This document shows positions 31,460 through 43,106 of a stretch of DNA of 64,000 nucleotides, piece after piece (position 1 is the stretch's first letter; every line of letters begins with the position of its first letter). The stretch is from contig OZ242005.1 in the NCBI GenBank assembly GCA_965204725.1, positions 2,560,001 through 2,624,000 on the forward strand, written 5' to 3'. Below the pieces are notes generated by a model. The model was not told where the DNA came from and did no database searches. It saw only the letters and a list, made by a program, of their open reading frames with translations. The translations under genes and the position numbers were made by a program. This stretch comes from Candidatus Latescibacterota bacterium. GTDB taxonomy: Bacteria > Latescibacterota > UBA2968 > UBA8231.

Positions 31460-31558
31460 AGTACAGCATCCGATTAAACTGTCAATAGCGCGTCCTGCTT
31501 GGGGCCGGGCGATTGGTTATATTGCCCGATGCTGAATTCACCAAGGGAGTGTCAACCC

Positions 31559-32623
31559 ATGAAATTCGTCATTCGCGCCGGCGGGATCGGTACGCGGCTG
31601 TGGCCCTATAGCCGCGAGCGCAAGCCCAAACAGTTCCACAGCTTGGTCGGCGAGCAGACCATGCTCCAAGCCGCGGTCGCCCGCATCGGCGCGATTGCCG
31701 CGCCGACCGATGTGTATGTATCAACCGGCCGTCGGTTGCAGTCGCTGGTGCGCCAACAGGTGCCGACGCTGTCGCCCGAGCGGATCATCGTCGAGCCGGC
31801 CCTGCGCAACACCGGGCCGGCCATCGGCTTGGAGTGTGCGTTGTTGGAGGCGCACCATCCGGGCTGTACGGTCGCCAGCTTGGGATCGGATCACTACATA
31901 GGCCGGCCCGAGGAGTTCTGCCGCTTGTTGCAGGTCGCCGACCAAGCCCTAACCGACCGGCCCGACTACTTGTTCACGCTAGGGGTCCAGCCGACGCGCC
32001 CAGAGACCGGCTACGGCTACATCCGCCGCGGCCCGGTGCTGGCCGAGGTGCGCGGGACGCCGGTGTACGCCGTGGCCGAGTTTGCGGAAAAGCCCGCTGC
32101 ACCACAGGCGACCGAGTACGCAGCCAGCGGCCACTACTTGTGGAATAGCAACACGTTTGTCTGGAAGGCGGCGACCGTGCTGGAGCTTTTCGCCCGCTTT
32201 GAGCCAACCCTGTACGCCGGGTTGCAGCGCATCCAAGCAGCCGTTGGCACGCCGGAAGAGGACGCGGTCATCGCCCGCGAGTATCCACAACTCAAGCCGA
32301 TCTCCATCGATCACGCCTTAGTCGAGCGCGCCCCCAAGGTGGCTACGCTGGCGGCGGACATTGACTGGGGCGACATCGGTTCTTGGGCCGCGCTGACGGA
32401 TGTATTGCCGACGGATGCGGCGGGCAATTTGCTGGCGGGCGAGGTGGTGGCATTGGACGCGGCCCGTTCGACGGTGTACGGGCAAGGCGACAAGATCGTG
32501 CTGCTATTGGGGGTGGAGGATTTGGTCGTGGTGGATACCCAAGACGCGCTGCTGGTGTGCGCCAAGGGGGCGGCGCAGCAGGTGAAAGACGCGGTGGCCC
32601 GTCTCCAAGAGAAATATCGCTGA
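31559..32623 (+). CDS. manC: Mannose-1-phosphate guanylyltransferase
   Basis: AGGIGTRLWPYSR..PKQF, EPALRNTG, SDH, ETGYGYI, FAEKP, WGDIGSW. Confidence 0.88.
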   Translation: MKFVIRAGGIGTRLWPYSRERKPKQFHSLVGEQTMLQAAVARIGAIAAPTDVYVSTGRRLQSLVRQQVPTLSPERIIVEPALRNTGPAIGLECALLEAHHPGCTVASLGSDHYIGRPEEFCRLLQVADQALTDRPDYLFTLGVQPTRPETGYGYIRRGPVLAEVRGTPVYAVAEFAEKPAAPQATEYAASGHYLWNSNTFVWKAATVLELFARFEPTLYAGLQRIQAAVGTPEEDAVIAREYPQLKPISIDHALVERAPKVATLAADIDWGDIGSWAALTDVLPTDAAGNLLAGEVVALDAARSTVYGQGDKIVLLLGVEDLVVVDTQDALLVCAKGAAQQVKDAVARLQEKYR

Positions 32624-32643
32624 AAACCCGCCAAGTTGATTTT

Positions 32644-32919
32644 TTAGCCCTGATTGGGGCTTATAGGTTGCGTAAAGCCAGTTAGCAAGGAAAAAATGAT
32701 GAGACCCAAGATTGCGATCAATAAGTAGCAGCCGAGCATTCGCTTAAATGATCCCTGATACTCTCTATCAAAACGTTCAGCAAATGTCCCGTCTTTCTTG
32801 TCGCCTGACATCGCTCTCATTGCCGCGCCTATACCTAACAGTAGAAAAAGGATCGCCACTGGTGGCAATGGTATTGTCGCGAAGGCGAGTATAACAAGAA
32901 TGACAGCAAGGCATCCCAT
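32644..32919 (-). CDS. Small membrane protein
   Basis: GGAGG RBS; hydrophobic N- and C-terminal segments. Confidence 0.6.
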   Translation of the reverse strand: MGCLAVILVILAFATIPLPPVAILFLLLGIGAAMRAMSGDKKDGTFAERFDREYQGSFKRMLGCYLLIAILGLIIFSLLTGFTQPISPNQG

Positions 32920-33010
32920 TGATTTTCCTCCGAATTTTCGGAGCTATAGCAGTCCTAAATGACTCGAAAGCATGGAATGTTGATCGGCACGGTCTTTTTT
33001 GCCTATCAGG

Positions 33011-33038
33011 CGTCATTCCCGCGAACGCGGGAATCCAG
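33011..33038. repeat. REP/dRS3-like palindrome CGTCATTCCCGCGAACGCGGGAATCCAG
   Basis: ATTCCC-N8-GGGAAT hairpin. Confidence 0.7.
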
Positions 33039-33075
33039 TCTTGAAGGATGTAGGATGGCTATATTTAACAAGGTA

Positions 33076-33903
33076 TCAGAACGCTTCATTCACCATCAGC
33101 TTGTAGAAACGCGCCTCCACGGCCCTCAAACGATCTTGATAGAGCTTTTTGTCCGTTGGGCCGGTTGAATCAAAAACTCTCACGAAAAACCGGCACTTTC
33201 TCGATTTAGACCACTCGAATAAGTCAGACGTTGAAGAAAGAAAAAGTTGTTCCGATACATCTTGATCCAAGACGATGTTTTGAATGGGTAGCGTCTGCCG
33301 TTCACTCGCTCGCTGCGGCAGGTCGGTCTCCCGCACGACTAGGCCAGCGGGCGTCAGGTTCACGTCGTATATGTATTCAATGGTTCCATCGTCGAGCGTC
33401 CAGCAGGATGGAACCTCGGTCCCTTTGCCGGCTGAGTATTCCTGCACCAGTTCCAATAGCTTTTCTACATTCCTCTCGCCAGCCGGTAGAAGCTCCCGAA
33501 TGGTTGAGTACTCACGTCCCATTTCTAGCGTGTTTATTATAGCTTCCGGTTCGGACAAAAAGCCAGCTTCCTCTGCGGTGCTGTGAAGCCTTTCAAGCTG
33601 TTGCTTTGCATCGCTGAGAAGTACCAATTCCCGCTGTAATTCCTCGATATTCTTACCGCCATCTGGCAGTATCTCTTGGATGGCGGCAAACTGCGCCTCA
33701 AGTTGTGCCTCAAGTAGGGTGATTGTTTCTTGCCGTTCCTCTGCGACGCGCTCGGCTTCCTTCTGCTTCTCTTGTTGGCGCACCAACAAGGCGGCAAAAG
33801 CGAGCAGTAGAACGAAGATGATGAGAATGGCGATCTCAGCCATGGTGAGGCCGAGAATAAGACCTCGTCGGTAGGCAGAGGTCTGCTTTCCAAGGGATGC
33901 CAT
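33076..33903 (-). CDS. MotB/ExbD/ZorB-like single-TM protein with coiled coil and non-OmpA C-terminal domain
   Basis: GLTMAEIAILIIFVLLL TM with an acidic residue at its start; follows a MotA-like gene. Confidence 0.6.
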   Translation of the reverse strand: MASLGKQTSAYRRGLILGLTMAEIAILIIFVLLLAFAALLVRQQEKQKEAERVAEERQETITLLEAQLEAQFAAIQEILPDGGKNIEELQRELVLLSDAKQQLERLHSTAEEAGFLSEPEAIINTLEMGREYSTIRELLPAGERNVEKLLELVQEYSAGKGTEVPSCWTLDDGTIEYIYDVNLTPAGLVVRETDLPQRASERQTLPIQNIVLDQDVSEQLFLSSTSDLFEWSKSRKCRFFVRVFDSTGPTDKKLYQDRLRAVEARFYKLMVNEAF

Positions 33904-33929
33904 ATTGATTTGTGTTCAGTCTCGCCTTG

Positions 33930-35195
33930 CTACTTCTCGTCTTTGTCTTGACGGGCTCGCCATTCGTCAAACCGCGTGTAACTAGCTTGTAGTTCTTGTT
34001 CGTTCGTGTTTGTCTCTGCGGATTGCGTCTCTTGTTGATCGGTTTTTCTATCTGCGGCTCGGAGTTTGGCTTGGTCGGTGTCGCTCATAAACTGCGCCGC
34101 CAGATCGGTCGTGCGAGGCGGAATAGCTTCCTTTTCAATCTGCTGGATCGGAACTTTCAGCAGCCGTTCGAGCAGGTCTTCGGGCACGTTCAGCCTGTTG
34201 ATCTTCTCAACAAGCTCTCCTATGCTGGCAGATACCTCGTTTGCAGCCTGTTGTAAACCTCGCTCTAATTCGTCGGTCGGAATCTGCACACTGTTGAGTC
34301 GATTCGCGAGTGCTTCTCCGGCTGCGCCAATTTGTTCGGCCCCCGCTTTAATCTGCTCGATCGGAACTTTCAGCAACTGTTCGAGTAGGTCTTCGGGCAC
34401 GTTCAGCCTGTTAATCTTCTCGACAAGTTCTCCTATGCTGGCAGATACTGCGTCCGAACTGACATTTATCACACCCACACTAGCAGACACCGCGTCCGAA
34501 CTAGCTTTTACTGCACTGTCGAGGTTTGATACTCGCTCATTGAGACCGGACACCGTATTGCCGAAACTGTCGAGGTTGGCTTGAAACTGCTCGCGACTTT
34601 CTTCAACGGTTTTGGTGAAGCGAGTAACTGATGCCTTGAATTGAGAAATAGCTTCCTTTTGTCTGTCGGAGCTCTCTCTAAGAATTTGCTCTAGCTCTAT
34701 TCTAAAAGTTGAAAACTTGCTTAGTTGATAATCAAGTTCGGATACTCTCTCGCTGAGATCGGATACCACATTGCCGAATTCGGATACCACATTGCCGAAT
34801 TTGGAGGTGGCTTCTTCTTCTGGGGATTCTTCAGATTGGTTAAATAAGACCCGGAAAATGATGCCAAATATCGTCGAAGCGATAGCGATGCCAAAATTCG
34901 TGATGATTTGGGTAATTTTTTCGCCAGATTCTTCACTGAGGGAAAATTCAAAAAGCGACACCCCCAAGCTGACGAGGGTATATAAAAACCCAAGGTAATA
35001 GAGGTTATCGCCGACTTTACCGAGTAGATGTTTCTGCTTGCGACAATACCAATAATACCCTGCATATATCAACATGATCGCAACGGGAAAGGCAGTCACG
35101 AAAACCTGATTCACATGGAGCTGCTTGAGAATTATAATCCCTACAGCTCCTATCAAGAAACATGCAAAGAGAATCTGTGAATCTCGTTTATCCAT
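33930..35195 (-). CDS. MotA/TolQ/ExbB/ZorA-like membrane protein with a long repetitive helical tail
   Basis: GDNLYYLGFLYTLVSLGVSL...FGIAIASTIFGIIFR, like the GLLGT...ALxTT helix pair; about 300-aa tail. Confidence 0.65.
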   Translation of the reverse strand: MDKRDSQILFACFLIGAVGIIILKQLHVNQVFVTAFPVAIMLIYAGYYWYCRKQKHLLGKVGDNLYYLGFLYTLVSLGVSLFEFSLSEESGEKITQIITNFGIAIASTIFGIIFRVLFNQSEESPEEEATSKFGNVVSEFGNVVSDLSERVSELDYQLSKFSTFRIELEQILRESSDRQKEAISQFKASVTRFTKTVEESREQFQANLDSFGNTVSGLNERVSNLDSAVKASSDAVSASVGVINVSSDAVSASIGELVEKINRLNVPEDLLEQLLKVPIEQIKAGAEQIGAAGEALANRLNSVQIPTDELERGLQQAANEVSASIGELVEKINRLNVPEDLLERLLKVPIQQIEKEAIPPRTTDLAAQFMSDTDQAKLRAADRKTDQQETQSAETNTNEQELQASYTRFDEWRARQDKDEK

Positions 35196-36007
35196 CAGTC
35201 GTTCATCCCGGAGGTTCTAAGTACGCGTACTACTTGGCCTCCGTGCTGCGAGAGCCAAGATTGGAAGAATTTCAACGGAGGGCCGCCGTCTCCCTGCTGT
35301 CGTTGCCGCCGCTGAATGAGCCATAGTTCTATATCGACGCCCCGCAGATCGGGGTTTAGGCCGCGAGATTCATGGGTGTGCTGGAAGCGGTCGAAATCTG
35401 GCGGCTCCCGATAAAACGAACAGGCGGCACTATTCTGTAGAAGGTCTGAGATAATGATGAGACGCCGTGGGACCGTGCGACGTTTGGTGTCTTGGAAATG
35501 CGTTAGGGAAATCGACTGCACGGATTCCATAATGGGCGACGATGGTGCTTCCTTTTCGGCGAGCAGGGTTTGCAGTTCTTCTTCTAGAGGTTGCCGGAAT
35601 TTCTTCTGCCAGTTTCGACGAACTATTGCTTGGGATTGGACTAGCGGATCGACGTTTTCAGGGTCGCCGGGATTGCAGACCTTAATGATCGGATCGAGGC
35701 CGCGTTCTTGCGTGGATTCCACTGCAAAAAGGCTAATTTCGTGATTTTCTTTGGCCGTATCTAACAGGTTCTGGATTTGAACTTTCAGGTCGTTCTTGGT
35801 CTGAGCACCAAAGGAATCGGTGCGGTCGAGCAGAAGGGCCGTAATCGAATACGGCCCCTCGGTTCTGCAAAGGGTTTCGGGATCGCGGACGATGGGATCG
35901 GGTTTCAACAGTACTAGAGCAACTATAGCTACGAGAACTAGGGCCATCATCGTCCCACCGGCGATGTAGTACCACAGCCCGTCTGGTAGCCTATCTTTTA
36001 ATGACAT
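35195..36007 (-). CDS. Membrane-anchored vWA-like domain protein
   Basis: N-terminal TM; LLLDRTDS (MIDAS-like), SPIMES, RLIIISDLLQNS; Cys residues. Confidence 0.6.
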   Translation of the reverse strand: MSLKDRLPDGLWYYIAGGTMMALVLVAIVALVLLKPDPIVRDPETLCRTEGPYSITALLLDRTDSFGAQTKNDLKVQIQNLLDTAKENHEISLFAVESTQERGLDPIIKVCNPGDPENVDPLVQSQAIVRRNWQKKFRQPLEEELQTLLAEKEAPSSPIMESVQSISLTHFQDTKRRTVPRRLIIISDLLQNSAACSFYREPPDFDRFQHTHESRGLNPDLRGVDIELWLIQRRQRQQGDGGPPLKFFQSWLSQHGGQVVRVLRTSGMND

Positions 36008-36056
36008 GAGCGATCTTTCCGCTTGTTTTTTCGTCTCGACATAATCGGCAGCTAGG

Positions 36057-37487
36057 CTATTCGGTTGGTGGTGGTAGGCGGTGCGGGGCCAATTCCCGCC
36101 ACTCCTTACTATTACGGACGCTATCGTACTTTTCTTTCAATTCCTCCGCGCCGTCCTTAACGCCTGCTCTCGTCTCAGCAATGATCTCTGAAATTTCTTC
36201 GCGTTTCAGCAAAGCCTCTGGCAAGGCACTGTCCATTGGCGATCGTTCTTCCAATTCCCATTTATCATTGAAGCGAGTAGGTGCTTCTCCGCCTCGGCTC
36301 GCACGGTTAACCTCTCGGTAGCGTTTGAGCAAATCGTCTCCTGCCCGCTCCAAGTGGTTGAGGTAGTCCTCGTGCGACTTGATAACGTGCCTATGTCCGT
36401 CCAAGATAGACACGCGGGCCGCCTCGAATCCCGTGAGTCTTTGCTCGATGCTGTTCAGTGTTTTGACCGCCTCATCAAATATCTTTTCTAGGTCTTTTTG
36501 ATGATTGTCATAAGCAGCTTGGTAGTCTTCATATTCACCCTGATAGCGATAGAACACCTTGCTATAACCGGGGTAGGGATCGCCAGCCAATTTTATGCCA
36601 TCGATAAAGCTAATAATTGCAAATAGGAAGCCCATGCAGAACAGCATCCATGACTGGAAGTCCCTTAATCCCAATGGATTCTCGCGAAAAGCAGACATGG
36701 CTAGCTGCCCGCCTTCGTCGAGCACGGTGCCCGTTATTTCTCGATAGTGTGCAACCATTAGGTTAAAGAAGAAGGCAAAGACTACAAATGCAACTGCGGC
36801 GAGGATGCCCACGGATTTTCTACGCCAGTCAATATGGTGACAGTAGGTAATAAGCCGCCTCCCGAGTAAGAAAGCGACCCCGAGATTGGCAAACGAAATA
36901 ACAATAGCTTCAGTATAGGCACCGAATAGCCCCAATTCGTTGCCCTTTGCCAGAAAGGACGCATTGCCCAAGGTCTCAATTAGAAAGAGCAGGGCGATAA
37001 TACCTGAAGCAAAAAACTTGTATGCCCCACTATTTTGCTTAATCGCCTCGCGATACAGGTCATTGTCCTTCTGAAACTTCGTCAAGCGATCTTCTGCTAT
37101 TTTTAACGCTCTTTTCTTCGATCGCAAATTCGTTTTAGCATTCTCGACCTTCTGTTCAAGTTTTACTTTACTATTGCGAATTTCTCCATCAACAGCACCA
37201 ATAGAGTGATTGCGGAATTCTGTGTTGAGTTTGATAAGACGCTTGCGGTATGCGTCTAGCTCTTCATCGCCTCTATCCTTTGCTTTTGACTGATATGTGC
37301 TGATCCGCCCGACAATCTTATTTTCGGTGTCGTCGAGGCTTGGATTGTCTAGCGCAGGCAATCCCCGTTTCGCTGCTGCTTCAGCCTCTTCTGTTAGATG
37401 CAGTTCTTCTGCTATCTTACTTACATCGACTTTCTCAAACAGGTCAGTTGGCATCGCATGGTCCTCCTCATGGGTAAAATCAGTCAC
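36057..37487 (-). CDS. Multi-TM protein with N- and C-terminal coiled coils
   Basis: About 4 hydrophobic segments flanked by heptad-rich regions; start may be the ATG of MPTDLF. Confidence 0.75.
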   Translation of the reverse strand: MTDFTHEEDHAMPTDLFEKVDVSKIAEELHLTEEAEAAAKRGLPALDNPSLDDTENKIVGRISTYQSKAKDRGDEELDAYRKRLIKLNTEFRNHSIGAVDGEIRNSKVKLEQKVENAKTNLRSKKRALKIAEDRLTKFQKDNDLYREAIKQNSGAYKFFASGIIALLFLIETLGNASFLAKGNELGLFGAYTEAIVISFANLGVAFLLGRRLITYCHHIDWRRKSVGILAAVAFVVFAFFFNLMVAHYREITGTVLDEGGQLAMSAFRENPLGLRDFQSWMLFCMGFLFAIISFIDGIKLAGDPYPGYSKVFYRYQGEYEDYQAAYDNHQKDLEKIFDEAVKTLNSIEQRLTGFEAARVSILDGHRHVIKSHEDYLNHLERAGDDLLKRYREVNRASRGGEAPTRFNDKWELEERSPMDSALPEALLKREEISEIIAETRAGVKDGAEELKEKYDSVRNSKEWRELAPHRLPPPTE

Positions 37488-37730
37488 CTAGGGGCGTTTG
37501 ATCCACCAACGGGTATAAGAATGCAACGACCCAGCAGGGTGCCGGGCCATGTAGCCATCTCACAGGTTTTTAGGAGAAGTTCTGCCTATTTGCCGGGCTT
37601 CAGGGAGCTACCCTGTGCCGAATAAAGGCTATTTTATTCAACAGATAACCCGACGGGGCGCGGGCACCTGTGATATGGCTACGGGCAAGAAAGATATAGC
37701 GGTAATTTTTTCGGTCAACAAAAAAATCGC

Positions 37731-37890
37731 CTGCCGACGGACGCGGCGGGCGAGGTGGTGGCGTTGGACTCGGCCTTACGGGCAGGCCGACAAAATCGTG
37801 CTGCTACTGGACTTGGTGCTGCTGGTGTGCGCGAAAGGAGCGGACTCGCAAGCGAAAGACGCGGCGGAGCACCTCAAAGAGAAATACCGC
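37731..37890 (+). repeat. Degenerate direct-repeat copy of the manC 3' end
   Basis: ctgccgacggacgcggcgggcgaggtggtggcgttggac...aaagagaaataccgc matches 32405-32620 with internal deletions. Confidence 0.85.
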
Positions 37891-37895
37891 GAGTT

Positions 37896-38653
37896 TCACT
37901 CCACGTCGAGGATGTAGCGCGCCAGCGGCGAGAGCCGCTCGGCGGTTTCCGGCCGCAAATACGCACGCTGGTCGGTCTGCTGCGGGTGCTCGCGGGCGAT
38001 AAAGGCGCAGTGCAGGGTGCGGCGGGGACGGCTGCTGAGGTTGCGATACGAGCCGTGCCAGAGGCTGCCATTAAACACGGCCACCGAGCCAGCGCGGCCC
38101 GTCAGATGAACCTGCTCTGGATGGTCAGCCAAACGATCGGCCAAATGGTCGGCTACCCTGCCGGATTGGCGGTGGCTGCCCGGGACGCAGCGAGTCGCGC
38201 CGTTGGCTTGGGTGAAATCGTCGAGCATCCACATGGAGTTGACCACGTGATACGGCCCGCCGGGCACAGTGGGCCGCCCCAATCCGCATGCAGGGCCTGT
38301 AAGCCGTGGCCGGGCAGTGGATCGTGCCCGTTGAGCGAGTGCAGCTTAAACGGCCGCTGCAACAGGTGGAAGACCGCCGTCAGCAGCACCGGCTGTAGGT
38401 ACACCGCGTCAAAGACAGGCCCCTTGTTGACCAGATCGGCGAGGCGGCGCACACCCTCCATTTGGGCTACCTCCGCACCGGCCCGGTCGCCCTCGCGGGC
38501 AAAAATCGCGTCAAAAGCACGGCGCAACTCGGCCAGCCAGTCGGGGCCGATGACCCCTTCCAAGACGATGAAGCCGTGGGTGTCTAGCGCACTGCATTGC
38601 GCGGGAGTCAGCGGCTGAGGGACGAATCCCCGTTGCAGTAATTCGCGGTCCAT
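37896..38653 (-). pseudogene. Phytanoyl-CoA dioxygenase (PhyH) family, split by a 1-nt frameshift near 38280
   Basis: GFIVLEG...QALHADW in one frame; VNSMWMLDDFTQANGAT..PGSH..LWHG in the other; G-run at the junction. Confidence 0.8.
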
Positions 38654-38657
38654 TGGC

Positions 38658-39821
38658 TTAGCGACCGGCGCGGCGGGCGAATTCACACAGGGCGGTCACG
38701 CCGCGGCGGATGTGCTCTTCTGAGGCGGCGATGGAGACGCGCACGTGGTCGCGGCACGTCTGGCCAAAGGTGCTGCCCGGCGCCACAGCCACGCGCTGCT
38801 CGTTGAGGAGCCGGACAGCGAATTCGCCAGAGTCCATGCCCGCCGCGGCGATGTCGATCATGAGGTAAATCGCGCCGCCCGGGGTATAGCGGTACAAGCC
38901 ATATTCTCTCAGGACATCAAGGGCCAAGTCGCGGCGGTGCTTATAGCTGCGGCGCATCTCGGCCACGTCATCTTGCGGGCCATTGAGCGCGTCGGCGGCC
39001 GCGAGCTGGGAAAAGCCCGTGCCGCACGAGACAAAAGGCTCTTGCAGCTTGGCGGCCAGTTCGATGTACTCGGGCTGGGCGCGGGTAAAGCCCACTCGGT
39101 AGCCGGTCATGGCGTAGCTTTTGGACATGCCGGAGACCACGATGGCGCGTCCGTCAGCGTCGTAGGGCAGGGCGCTTTGATGCGGTTGGTCAAAGACGAT
39201 CTGGCCGTAGATCTCGTCGGACAGCACCCACAAATCGCGGCGCTGGGCCCAGTGCATAAGCTGGCGCATGAGCGTCTCGTCGTACACTTGGCCGGTGGGA
39301 TTGGAGGGCGTACAGAGGAGGAGGAGTTTGGTGCGGGGGCTGACGAGGCGATCCATCTCGTCGAGGTCGGGCAGAAAGTGGTTTTCCGCCCGCAGCTTGT
39401 AAAAGACGGGTTGGCCGTGGGCCATGGAGACCGCCATCTCGTAGTTGGGCCAGCCCGGATCGGGCAACAGGGCCTCGTCGCCCGGTTCGAGCAGGGCCAG
39501 AAAAGCGGTCGCCACGCTCATGACGGCCCCGGGGGTGACGAGGATGTTTTCCTCGGTGGTCGGCACGCCGGTGCTGCGCTCGAAGTAGCGAGCTGCGGCC
39601 GCGCGCAACGCATCGACGCCGGCATTGGGGATGTACTTGGTGTGGCCGGCGCGCACGTAGCGGCAGGTGGCTTCGACAATGGGCGCGGGCGTGGCAAAAT
39701 CGGGTTGGCCTACTTCGAGGTGAATGACCTCGCCCGTTTTCTCAATGTCCCAAGCCAGTTCCATGATCTCGCGGATGCCCGAGCGAGGAATCGACGCGGC
39801 GATGCGGGCGAAAGGCTTCAT
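38658..39821 (-). CDS. Class I/II PLP-dependent aminotransferase
   Basis: GQPDF, PSNPTG, SDEIY, SKSYAMTGYRVG. Confidence 0.93.
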   Translation of the reverse strand: MKPFARIAASIPRSGIREIMELAWDIEKTGEVIHLEVGQPDFATPAPIVEATCRYVRAGHTKYIPNAGVDALRAAAARYFERSTGVPTTEENILVTPGAVMSVATAFLALLEPGDEALLPDPGWPNYEMAVSMAHGQPVFYKLRAENHFLPDLDEMDRLVSPRTKLLLLCTPSNPTGQVYDETLMRQLMHWAQRRDLWVLSDEIYGQIVFDQPHQSALPYDADGRAIVVSGMSKSYAMTGYRVGFTRAQPEYIELAAKLQEPFVSCGTGFSQLAAADALNGPQDDVAEMRRSYKHRRDLALDVLREYGLYRYTPGGAIYLMIDIAAAGMDSGEFAVRLLNEQRVAVAPGSTFGQTCRDHVRVSIAASEEHIRRGVTALCEFARRAGR

Positions 39822-40703: not shown

Positions 40704-43106
40704 CTATTTGCGCTCGGCGATTTTGCAGACCCAGATGCTGATTTCGTACAGCAGGAGCAAGGGCAGGGCCATTAGGATCTGGGAGACCGGGTCCGGCGGC
40801 GTGAAGATCGCGCCGAGGACGAAGATGCCGATGATGGCATAGCGGCGGATATGGCGCATCCGCGCCGCAGTCAGCACCCCGACCTTGGCCAAAAAGAGCG
40901 ACAGCACGGGCATTTCAAAGACGATGCCAAAACCCGCTATGAGCCGCAGCACAAAGCCGATGTACTCGTCGGCTGCCCATTGCGAGGTCATGTCGGGCGG
41001 CTCGAGCGAGAGGAAAAAGCGCAGCCCGAGCGGGAGGACGATGGAGTAGGCAATCAGCGCCCCGACCGCGAAGCAGAAAACGCTCAGCGAGATAATGGGC
41101 ACCATGAGTTGTTTCTCGCGCTGCAAAAGCCCCGGCGCCACAAAGCGCCAAGTTTGGTAAAAGACGACCGGCAGCGCGAGCAACAGCCCACCGACAAAGG
41201 CGATTTGCAGGCTGATGAAAAAGTAAGTCATGGGCCGCAGGGCTTGCAGTCGGCGCGTCGGCGGCAGGTCGGCGGGGGGCGCGTCCGGTTGGGGCGCAGC
41301 ATCGGACAGGCCCAACCACTGGCGCACCAGTTGTTCGACGGCCCGCACCGCGCCCGCGGATTGCTGGCTCTCCAAGCTGAAGACGGCTTCTTCGTACGGC
41401 CGGGTCAAGATCTGCATGATCGAGTCGGAGAAGGCGAAGCAGAGTACCGCGCCCACAGTGAGCGCGCCGAGGGCCTTGAGAATGCGCCAGCGGAGTTCTT
41501 CGAGGTGGTCGAGAAAGGGCATGTTGGCTTCCCGGGGCGGGTCTGGCGGGTCTGGTTCGGGGCGAGCGTCTGCTTCTGCGGGTTCGGGGGCCTTGCGGAA
41601 GAGGGCGACGAACGCGCCCAAGGCGATTAGCAGGCAGCCGTAGGCAAAGAGGTCGCCGTGCCGCGTGTAAAAGGTCGTCGGCTGGCCGACCGGCACCGTC
41701 GCGACCGCAACCGCCGGCGCGAAGAGGTCGGTCGCCTCGTAGGTGCGGCCAAACGGGTCGATGAACAGGGAAATGCCGGTGGTGGCTGCGCGGGCGATGG
41801 CCGTGCGGTTTTCAACGGCGCGCATGGCGTTGATGAGCGCGTGTTGGTAAGGGCCGGCGCTGCGGCCGAACCACGAGTCATTGGTGATGTTGACCAGCAC
41901 CCGCGCCCCAGCCGCCACGTGCTGGCGCACTAACGCGGGAAAGATGGACTCAAAGCAGATAAGCACGGCAAAGGGGTGCCGAGGATGGGCAAAAATCGCG
42001 TGTTCCGTGCCGCGCGCGAATTCGGCCGGGCCGAGGTCGCCGGTCAGGCGGGTCCAGTCGATGTCGCGCAGCAGGGGGATGGCGTCTCGATAGGGCGTCC
42101 GCTCGCCAAAGGGCACCAAGTGCATCTTGGCGTACCAAGGCAGGGCAGTGGCCTCGGGCTCGACGAAGAAGGCCGCGTTGTACTGGGCGTGCGGCGCGCC
42201 GGTGAGCACGGGAATGTCCAGTTCCTCGACGAGTGCTTGGACGCGGCCTCGGCAATCGGCTCGGCGTACGGGGTCGCACGGCAGGGCGGTTTCGGGCCAG
42301 ACCAGCAGCTCGGGATCGCGCTTGGCCGCTTGGCGCGAGAGGGTGGCGAGGGCCGAGAAACTGCGCTCCAGCCCGTTTGGACCCCACTTGTCGGCGTAGG
42401 TGGTGTTCGGTTGGATCAGGCCGATGCGCAGGCCCTCGGCCGGGACGGCCGCTGCTAGGGCGCTCTGCGCGTGGAGCCAAGGCAAGAGATAGCCCAAGGC
42501 AACGCCCCCGAGAAAGACTCGGCGCTCAACGAGTGCCAAATAGAACAGCGCGTTGAGACCGACGACCCAGCAGGAGACGCCAAAGACCCCGGTTGCGGTG
42601 GCGTATTGGATGAAATGGGGCAGGGCCGCTTGGCTGTGCCCCAGCAAGAGCCAAGGAAACCCCAACTCCCCGAGCGAGAGCGCATACTCCTGCCCGGTCC
42701 ACAACAAGGGCAGCAGCGCGAGGGCCTTGGTGCCCCACCGCACGGCGAGCACGTTGAACAGCCCAGTGCAAAGGCCGGTAAAAAGGCCCAAATAAGCGGC
42801 CATCAGCCCGGTGCCCGCGACGACGGCCGGGCCTCCGCCTTGGGTATAGGCCACCCAGTACAGGGACAGCAGGTTCCAGACCAAACCGCTGATCCAGCCC
42901 ATGGCCAAGCCGGCTTTGAAGCCGCGATCTTTCAGGGCCAGCAGCAAAGGCACCAAGGCACCATGGGCCCAGAGCGGATGATAGAGAACGGCGAGCGGGT
43001 GATCCGGGTGGTTGGGAAAGGCCAGCGAGAGCAAGGCCCCGCTTAGTGCAGCGAGCAGCAGGCGGTGCAGCGAGGTTGGGGCTAGGACCAAGCGCGGGTT
43101 AGACAT
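40704..43106 (-). CDS. lnt-tatC: Apolipoprotein N-acyltransferase (Lnt) - TatC in-frame fusion
   Basis: Lnt: GFPW, WPETA, KMHLVPFGE, ICFES, NDSWFG. TatC from about 41522: MPFLDHLEELR, FVAPGL, FEMP, TPPDPVSQ, LYEISI. Confidence 0.9.
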   Translation of the reverse strand: MSNPRLVLAPTSLHRLLLAALSGALLSLAFPNHPDHPLAVLYHPLWAHGALVPLLLALKDRGFKAGLAMGWISGLVWNLLSLYWVAYTQGGGPAVVAGTGLMAAYLGLFTGLCTGLFNVLAVRWGTKALALLPLLWTGQEYALSLGELGFPWLLLGHSQAALPHFIQYATATGVFGVSCWVVGLNALFYLALVERRVFLGGVALGYLLPWLHAQSALAAAVPAEGLRIGLIQPNTTYADKWGPNGLERSFSALATLSRQAAKRDPELLVWPETALPCDPVRRADCRGRVQALVEELDIPVLTGAPHAQYNAAFFVEPEATALPWYAKMHLVPFGERTPYRDAIPLLRDIDWTRLTGDLGPAEFARGTEHAIFAHPRHPFAVLICFESIFPALVRQHVAAGARVLVNITNDSWFGRSAGPYQHALINAMRAVENRTAIARAATTGISLFIDPFGRTYEATDLFAPAVAVATVPVGQPTTFYTRHGDLFAYGCLLIALGAFVALFRKAPEPAEADARPEPDPPDPPREANMPFLDHLEELRWRILKALGALTVGAVLCFAFSDSIMQILTRPYEEAVFSLESQQSAGAVRAVEQLVRQWLGLSDAAPQPDAPPADLPPTRRLQALRPMTYFFISLQIAFVGGLLLALPVVFYQTWRFVAPGLLQREKQLMVPIISLSVFCFAVGALIAYSIVLPLGLRFFLSLEPPDMTSQWAADEYIGFVLRLIAGFGIVFEMPVLSLFLAKVGVLTAARMRHIRRYAIIGIFVLGAIFTPPDPVSQILMALPLLLLYEISIWVCKIAERK

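Follow-up and report, generated by a model that had tools for sequence, protein, structure and literature searches.

Among ion-driven stators, TolQR transmits to TolA and ExbBD transmits to TonB. The closest described architecture to the proteins reported here is that of ZorA and ZorB of Zorya (PDB 8qyd, 8vvi and 8vvn; PMC11946911, PMC11890865); there, Asp26 of ZorB contacts Thr147 and Ser184 of ZorA, forming an ion filter (PMC11946911). A computational study from 2025 in Mol Biol Evol predicts TolQ-like motors that work with membrane-tethered von Willebrand factor A (vWA) proteins whose function is unknown, and it reports that these proteins have either a TolA/TonB-type SHLS helix or an Asp-bearing pore helix of their own without a separate tolR/exbD (PMC12204202). 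Here we describe a four-gene cassette, T-V-A-B, in a 64,000-nt window of a Candidatus Latescibacterota bacterium genome (the whole stretch that was analysed, positions 2,560,001 to 2,624,000 of contig OZ242005.1, assembly GCA_965204725.1). T-V-A-B is a conserved, horizontally mobile four-gene module, which we call TVAB. Its A and B proteins probably form an ion-driven stator, a very distant member of the MotAB/ExbBD/TolQR/ZorAB type, a reading on which several weak lines of evidence agree, none of them strong.

The cassette lies on the minus strand and reads T (36057-37487, 476 aa), V (35195-36007, 270 aa), A (33930-35195, 421 aa) and B (33076-33903, 275 aa). T has four transmembrane helices with long coiled-coil regions on its N- and C-terminal sides, V is anchored in the membrane by one N-terminal helix ahead of an alpha/beta-type domain, and A and B are the proposed stator A and B subunits. 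Spacing is close throughout, with 49 nt between T and V, a 1-nt overlap of V with A, and 26 nt between A and B. GC content is 0.46-0.52 over 32500-37999 and 0.58-0.68 on either side. The initial annotation of this region had described four tightly packed, co-oriented genes in a lower-GC island, and that description was borne out by the open reading frames (ORFs) and the GC profile, down to the strings it quoted (YYLGFLYTLVSL, FGIAIASTIFG, TMAEIAILIIF, DRTDS and IISD), all of which are present.

Whether the four genes travel together had been put forward as a matter to check, and they do. A pattern scan of one genome per species returned 592 candidate stretches, 541 of which were confirmed, and the best 80 were fetched and examined by running iterative profile hidden Markov models (HMMs) of the four window proteins over all six-frame ORFs. 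V was found in 80/80 loci, T in 79/80 and B in 78/80, directly after A in each of those 78. None of the 80 loci departs from the T-V-A-B order on a single strand: 72 are clean, three are cut by contig ends, and five have a gene that is split or matched twice. These loci span Latescibacterota, many Alphaproteobacteria, Acidobacteriota, Gammaproteobacteria, Nitrospirales, Dehalococcoidia, Thermodesulfobacteriota and others, and the Latescibacterota loci are the closest to the window among these best 80 of 541, at 44-56% identity. At E<=1e-3, a profile of the A core matched 2750 representative clusters out of 1.84 billion, a number that fell to 2019 at the stricter E<=1e-10. Carriage is patchy, with T present in 8/121 sampled genomes of the window's own phylum. 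Two of the 80 loci are plasmid-borne and, in a wider search of 72,556 plasmids, a relative was found on 24, of which 11 are typed as conjugative. Viral contigs hold a relative in only one case of 2.9 million and the PHROGs matches of the four window proteins are weak coiled-coil matches only, so we rejected a phage origin.

The suggestion that this is an undescribed system also held up. No Pfam, NCBIfam or PADLOC model reached its cut-off on any of the four window proteins, and the database homologues of the module proteins are all unnamed or 'hypothetical'. Profile searches with A, V and T against all PDB sequences gave nothing significant. In full-text literature, with subscription journals and supplementary files outside the scope of the search, we found no description of the cassette or of the protein accessions of its homologues on plasmid pRL11 of Rhizobium johnstonii 3841, a tractable host.

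The B protein provides part of the case for a stator. It begins with a basic N-terminus and a single helix, predicted to be oriented N-in, that carries the motif GLTMAEI, in which Glu23 is invariant. The single helix with Glu in place of the usual Asp, as first annotated, is a property of the whole family: all 75 motif-bearing homologues have Glu and none has Asp, and five further ORF matches without the motif are fragments or variants. The Asp that defines stator B subunits is absent from B, where Glu, still a carboxylate, occupies the position. Four PADLOC ZorB profiles match the B helix region at E-values of 6.1e-5 to 0.034, below their cut-offs, and an hhalign alignment of B with ExbD covers only 8-10 residues of the helix. 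The helix is followed by a coiled-coil linker of about 120 residues and, in the window protein, by a C-terminal domain of ~110 aa that is modelled with a predicted local distance difference test (pLDDT) score above 90 and holds two invariant cysteines, C167 and C237. The best Foldseek matches of this domain are TolR (5by4) and ExbD periplasmic domains; when the whole B model was searched, coiled-coil matches to the long N-terminal helix swamped the list and nothing was returned on the C-terminal domain.

Across the family, B proteins end in one of two kinds of domain. Of 77 members, 31 have the Cys-pair type with three more as variants, and 42 have an OmpA-type domain with one more truncated. 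The two types appear unrelated by profile comparison (hhalign P 0.6 on cleaned sets). Pfam recognises OmpA in 13 of 58 B members scanned, and the pRL11 homologue is named 'OmpA family protein' in RefSeq. By analogy, the periplasmic domains of the MotB/ZorB and TolR/ExbD stator subunits would be of these same two kinds. The initial label of a MotB-like protein lacking OmpA is accurate for the window B, which has no OmpA match, and does not extend to the family, more than half of which has an OmpA-like domain.

The A protein is modelled by AlphaFold with four membrane helices (3-25, 30-51, 55-86 and 93-121; pLDDT about 90 there). We infer the topology of the module proteins from charge, lipobox and Cys pairs; in A, the helix 2-3 loop is basic and the helix 3-4 loop acidic across the alignments, and the tail is therefore predicted to be cytoplasmic. 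Two threonines, T73 in helix 3 and T108 in helix 4, are invariant in 58 sequences. In both hhalign registers, which come from weak alignments, T73 is paired with the GLLGT/GILGT Thr and S107-T108 with the last-helix TT or TS, and on that register the two residues may be equivalent to Thr147 and Ser184 of ZorA. TolQ/ExbB chains make up 14 of the first 16 Foldseek rows for A, followed by ZorA, all with E-values of 0.044 or worse, and the best membrane-protein fold matches of the model are ZorA, ExbB and TolQ.

The A tail (residues ~122-421, ~300 aa) is predicted to be helical and segmented at recurring 'VP.DLLE' breaks. It contains an internal repeat of 107 nt (34134-34240 and 34347-34453, 91% identical), in agreement with the repeat-bearing helical tail noted at the outset. 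The length of A-family proteins ranges from 207 to 1002 aa across the 80 loci, and the tail thus evolves quickly in length. The repeat belongs to a recent 213-nt tandem duplication (71 aa) at 34134-34453 in the window gene, which also has a 21-nt duplication at 34760-34799 (FGNVVSE/FGNVVSD).

Several results weigh against a stator. A has no match to PF01618 (MotA_ExbB) at E<=1, and a PF01618 scan of its own genome found five other genes and not A. An A profile gave no PDB chain at E<=10. Profile-profile comparison with hhalign gave P 0.0055 against 32 ExbB/TolQ-type proteins and P 0.02 against 10 ZorA-like proteins of the same phylum; a negative control, T against ZorA, gave P 0.0068, and true relatives, ZorA against ExbB/TolQ, gave 3.8e-8. 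By this measure, the scores of A are at noise level and no better than the negative control. ZorA models from NCBIfam and PADLOC touch only the coiled-coil tail of A, at 17-19 bits against cut-offs of 190-500 (NCBIfam ZorA_1, 17.7 bits against 190), and ZorA_1 has no match at E<=1e-20 in the window's own genome. The fold evidence from the A model is consistent with a stator and non-discriminating, since the model is matched by soluble helical bundles no less well than by ZorA. A complex prediction of four A(1-137) and two B(1-70) chains, run without controls, gave a score of 0.09 and a mark of 0.32 and speaks neither for nor against binding.

These results bear most on the strongest competing explanation, in which A and B form no ion motor: A would be the four-helix anchor of a coiled-coil scaffold and B a bitopic cell-wall anchor, together making a static scaffold or stress sensor with T and V, and the likeness to stators would be convergent. 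Such a scaffold would account for stator-homology tests that all stay at noise level, for the equally good matches of soluble bundles, for a conserved acidic residue in B that is Glu and not Asp, and for the weak matches of the A tail to many coiled-coil families, among them MCE, apolipophorin and JetC. It does less well with the buried invariant Glu of B and the two invariant Thr on the last helices of A, which are the expected signature of an ion path. It also leaves aside that the B architecture recurs with both kinds of periplasmic domain known from stator B subunits and that, among membrane proteins, every one of the best fold matches of A is a stator A subunit. We consider a static scaffold unlikely, yet the most serious of the rival explanations. 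The MotA/MotB-like assignment made initially is in this sense partly upheld: the folds, the Thr pair, the Glu, the OmpA-bearing homologues and the ZorB profiles concur, and profile-profile comparison gives it no help.

If A and B are a stator, they differ from each of the described ones. Compared with ZorA, A begins with one additional helix, has no membrane-proximal cytoplasmic domain between its helices, and has a tail segmented by the 'VP.DLLE' breaks; compared with ZorB, B has Glu where ZorB has Asp. TVAB also lacks the soluble helicase/nuclease proteins of ZorC, ZorD or ZorE type, and its partners T and V are membrane proteins of no known family, as the initial annotation had anticipated in calling the partners unlike the ZorC/D/E set. 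The likeness to TolQ-TolR and ExbB-ExbD lies in the Foldseek list of A, which they dominate, in the pore-helix Thr that falls in the same (weak) alignment register, and in the C-terminal domain of the window B. Unlike those pairs, however, A has no PF01618 match and a long tail, B has the ~120-residue coiled-coil linker along with Glu for Asp, and there is no TolA/TonB-type partner with an SHLS helix. MotA/MotB and PomA/PomB have a large cytoplasmic helix 2-3 loop, the torque interface, that A lacks; TVAB has no flagellar genes nearby, and its distribution is patchy and mobile.

The clusters predicted in PMC12204202 resemble TVAB in that stator-like genes adjoin a gene for a membrane-anchored periplasmic alpha/beta (possibly vWA-like) protein. 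Those clusters use recognisable tolQ homologues, whereas A is no recognisable tolQ. The carboxylate of TVAB is on a separate B, and the V helix has neither the SHLS His nor an acidic residue. VWA models do not recognise V either, and nothing in those clusters corresponds to T.

The V protein is anchored in the window by a helix that contains no His and no acidic residue. In most V homologues an Arg-rich N-terminus precedes the helix, and in two distant homologues a lipobox-like LLAC/LLGC replaces it; together with two conserved Cys, these features place the domain, by prediction, in the periplasm. An alignment of the family shows D61, D64, C111, P113, S157, S187 and D188 to be invariant and C47 nearly so. 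V had been annotated as vWA-like, and sequence tests did not support that label. V has no match in Pfam, nothing below E 0.27 in a PDB profile search, and an hhalign P of 0.19 against VWA_2, and a PF13519 scan of its own genome hit seven places, none at V or its paralogue. The classical metal ion-dependent adhesion site (MIDAS) motif is D-x-S-x-S with a downstream Thr and Asp. The V motif D61-x-[TS]-D64, followed by S157 and S187-D188, has MIDAS-like spacing and is not the classical motif. One weak lead came from an Atlas search in which the homologue P0231 stood in for the window V: a VWA_2-bearing cluster, 44% of whose members carry VWA_2, was reached only at rank 27 with a score of 0.86 and 158 shared features against a guide value of 170. 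On balance of this lead and the negative sequence tests, the vWA label is best regarded as unconfirmed.

The T protein has an even number of helices, so its two coiled-coil regions would be on the same side of the membrane, presumably both in the cytoplasm. Polar residues in or next to the membrane are invariant in a 46-sequence alignment (E171, N175, N201, H247, R249, D303 and Y305), and the family shares the motifs FLAKGNE, AHYRE, DPYPGY and YREAN. T has no sequence relative in the PDB, where the best match is a designed helix bundle at E 0.052, and no Pfam family is common to more than 1/46 of its homologues. PADLOC returned nothing for V and only PbeC for T, at an E-value of 0.31.

T and V can occur without the motor. 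A second locus in the window's own genome (contig 1, 492831-495133; 6832-9134 of locus L156) encodes T and V at 69-72% nucleotide identity and has no A or B beside it, and no further A or B was found anywhere in that genome. T-V without A-B is also found in genomes G005, G132 and G135, as well as in G008, whose contig stops shortly after V; all four genes are present in G110 and G113. Ordinary metabolic genes surround the T-V-only loci, whose DNA most genomes of the genus retain. We propose that T-V is the older pair and able to work alone. A secreted nuclease of S1/P1 type, suspected from N-terminal sequence beside the G005 T-V locus, was set aside for want of a Pfam match at 1e-5.

In the window, the four genes sit on an acquired, mobile island (32621..37731). 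We recognise the island as an insertion from its low GC content, the duplicated end of its target gene and the empty sites in relatives of the genus. The target is the 3' end of an intact, plus-strand ManC-like nucleotidyl-transferase gene (31499-32623), the last ~215 nt of which are the repeated unit. The left repeat is the 3' end of that gene itself (32406..32620, plus strand), and the right repeat, just beyond T, is a displaced, diverged copy (37732..37890, plus strand) within ORF 37615-37917, whose translation resembles the C-terminal end of the 31499-32623 product. Left and right copies are 78-94% identical (repeat families D2, D3, D5, D8 and D9), and the insertion measures about 5.3 kb. 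The counterpart of the nucleotidyl-transferase gene in loci L001 and L006 matches NTP_transferase and ManC_GMP_beta-helix. By DNA search of 30 genomes of the genus, the flanks abut without the island in at least 10 (G002, G005, G014, G020, G022, G023, G027, G028, G029 and G033), and the island occupies the same site in G004 and G025. In other genomes, among them G001, G026 and G031, 5-8 kb of non-island DNA separates the same ManC-like and PhyH-like flanks, as judged from coordinates only. This suggests that the ManC-like/PhyH-like intergenic site is an integration hot spot with variable cargo. Besides the four genes, the island has only a 91-aa ORF and no integrase in the ORF list, tRNA genes are absent within 25-45 kb of the window, and promoter and terminator scans gave results near the shuffle expectation.

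The neighbours of TVAB elsewhere hint at what it does. When ORFs in the 3-kb flanks of the 80 loci were clustered, one family recurred widely, an SNase-like nuclease with a signal peptide at 18 loci; the next largest family was found at seven. HMM searches of the fetched flanks detected a gene for an SNase-like protein or Endonuclease I in 24/80 loci, at a distance of 500 bp or less in 18, and with both B types (14/42 and 10/34). There is no nuclease within 7 kb in 56/80 loci, the window included. A survey of 29 sampled loci (140 of 146 chosen ORFs, six being left out for size) found known defence genes at eight: IetAS, Lamassu LmuBC, PDC-S52, four restriction-modification or methylase sets, and mad3. 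Mobile-element genes are at 7/29 of these loci and a conjugation gene at only 1/29; the defence and mobile-element figures are raw counts without a matched control. At locus L069, a TrbL/VirB6 gene comes before the cassette and a resolvase gene after it. On pRL11 (RL_RS31080-31100), a thermonuclease gene abuts B and a gene for a PBP1A-type penicillin-binding protein precedes the cassette; a plasmid of Methylomicrobium lacus, likewise a tractable non-pathogen, carries the cassette too.

From this context, we tentatively suggest a role for TVAB in defence or envelope surveillance, a proposal that we would sooner see doubted than assumed. The best explanation of the whole, which falls somewhat short of an even chance, is a mobile envelope module in which a stator made of A and B, combined with periplasmic sensing, gives protection against invading DNA. 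In such a module, helices 2-4 of A would build a ring in which Thr73 and Thr108 line the ion path, and the single helix of B would sit inside the ring and carry the ion on its invariant Glu. Holding B in the periplasm would fall to its C-terminal domain, which most relatives have in an OmpA-like form and the window protein in the Cys-pair, TolR-like form, and the ZorA-like helical tail of A, variable in length, would extend into the cytoplasm. V and the B domain may sense a periplasmic disturbance or ligand, and the motor and the A tail may relay the signal to T. The output would protect against invading DNA, in about a third of loci by way of a secreted nuclease. A bolder version is a long shot: TVAB would be a new class of ion-driven 5:2 motor with Glu as ion carrier, passing a periplasmic signal through a ZorA-like tail to T as a membrane effector, with a nuclease in about a third of lineages, and detecting and destroying the DNA of invading phages or plasmids in the periplasm or at the envelope, ahead of its entry into the cytoplasm.

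Other observations tell against a protective module driven by A and B. Nuclease genes and known defence genes are both missing from the window's own island, and the defence genes seen at 8 of the 29 sampled loci are a count without a matched control. SNase genes are common plasmid cargo. The nuclease linkage may thus be partly a matter of mobile-element context. T-V pairs without a motor, and among metabolic genes, imply that the core job of the module needs no motor.

These T-V-only loci, kept in most genomes of the genus, also favour a second alternative, a housekeeping or other physiological envelope machine driven by the proton motive force, in which A and B pass force or a signal to V for maintenance, adhesion, uptake or secretion. 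The membrane-anchored, periplasmic V adjoins the motor genes much as in the clusters that PMC12204202 predicts, and the penicillin-binding protein gene ahead of the pRL11 cassette fits as well. Such a machine is hard to reconcile, however, with a patchy distribution in which T is found in so few genomes of the phylum, with an acquired island whose sites are empty in relatives, with plasmid carriage, and with the frequency of defence and mobile-element genes among the neighbours. The V helix, free of the SHLS His and of any acidic residue, is unlike both predicted families of vWA transducers, and the A tail is predicted to be cytoplasmic, the wrong side for an outward force transducer. We judge this machine rather improbable, somewhat more so than the static scaffold. 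A function in the DNA traffic of plasmids or integrative elements (exclusion, mating-related envelope remodelling or uptake), with the periplasmic nuclease as a working part, would suit the 24 plasmids, the setting of L069 between TrbL/VirB6 and resolvase genes, the SNase-like genes adjoining many alphaproteobacterial loci and the thermonuclease gene of pRL11, but it is very unlikely given the 56 loci without a nearby nuclease, the many chromosomal loci without transfer genes nearby and the single conjugation gene in the sample.

If the preferred reading of A and B as a true stator is correct, the superfamily of 5:2 rotary motors has a further branch that is invisible to current sequence models, one of about 2000 representative clusters and present in 541 scanned species genomes. 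An invariant Glu at the ion-carrying position would be a first among the branches, and would offer a test of whether the 'universally conserved' Asp is mechanistically required. T and V, which belong to no known family and also occur motor-free, offer a natural experiment in which the contribution of a stator to an already existing membrane module can be seen. In its repeated association with secreted nucleases, with defence genes and with mobile elements, TVAB presents a testable case for defence that takes place outside the cytoplasm.

The remaining features of the window lie on or beside the island. Downstream of B is ORF S (32644-32919, minus strand), which encodes a small, hydrophobic protein of 91 aa. 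Its membership of the module is uncertain: a homologue follows B only in L001 and L006, 2 of the 80 loci, and S is lineage-specific. Between ORF S and the end of B is an element of ~120 nt (32945-33065) that is repeated genome-wide, with 123 blastn matches on both strands of its own genome, of which at least 17 are nearly full-length and 87-95% identical; it looks like a miniature inverted-repeat transposable element (MITE) or a repetitive extragenic palindromic (REP)-type repeat. At the other end, the stretch between T and the displaced gene end (37513-37672) has three blastn matches in its own genome including the window copy, one of them 88% over 160 nt, and recurs in the genomes of relatives too. 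Several public metagenome runs contain 0.29-0.41 of the sampled words of the sequence, and no RNA run is among the matches listed.

Beside the island, at 37896-38686 on the minus strand, two overlapping ORFs (38153-38686 and 37896-38282) resemble two halves of one gene, the counterpart of which matches PhyH in L001 and L006; a frameshift or an assembly error could explain the split. Farther along the minus strand, an 800-aa ORF (40704-43106) seemingly fuses an apolipoprotein N-acyltransferase-like (CN_hydrolase) part to a TatC part, and the same combination of CN_hydrolase and TatC in a single ORF is found by Pfam in L001 and L006.

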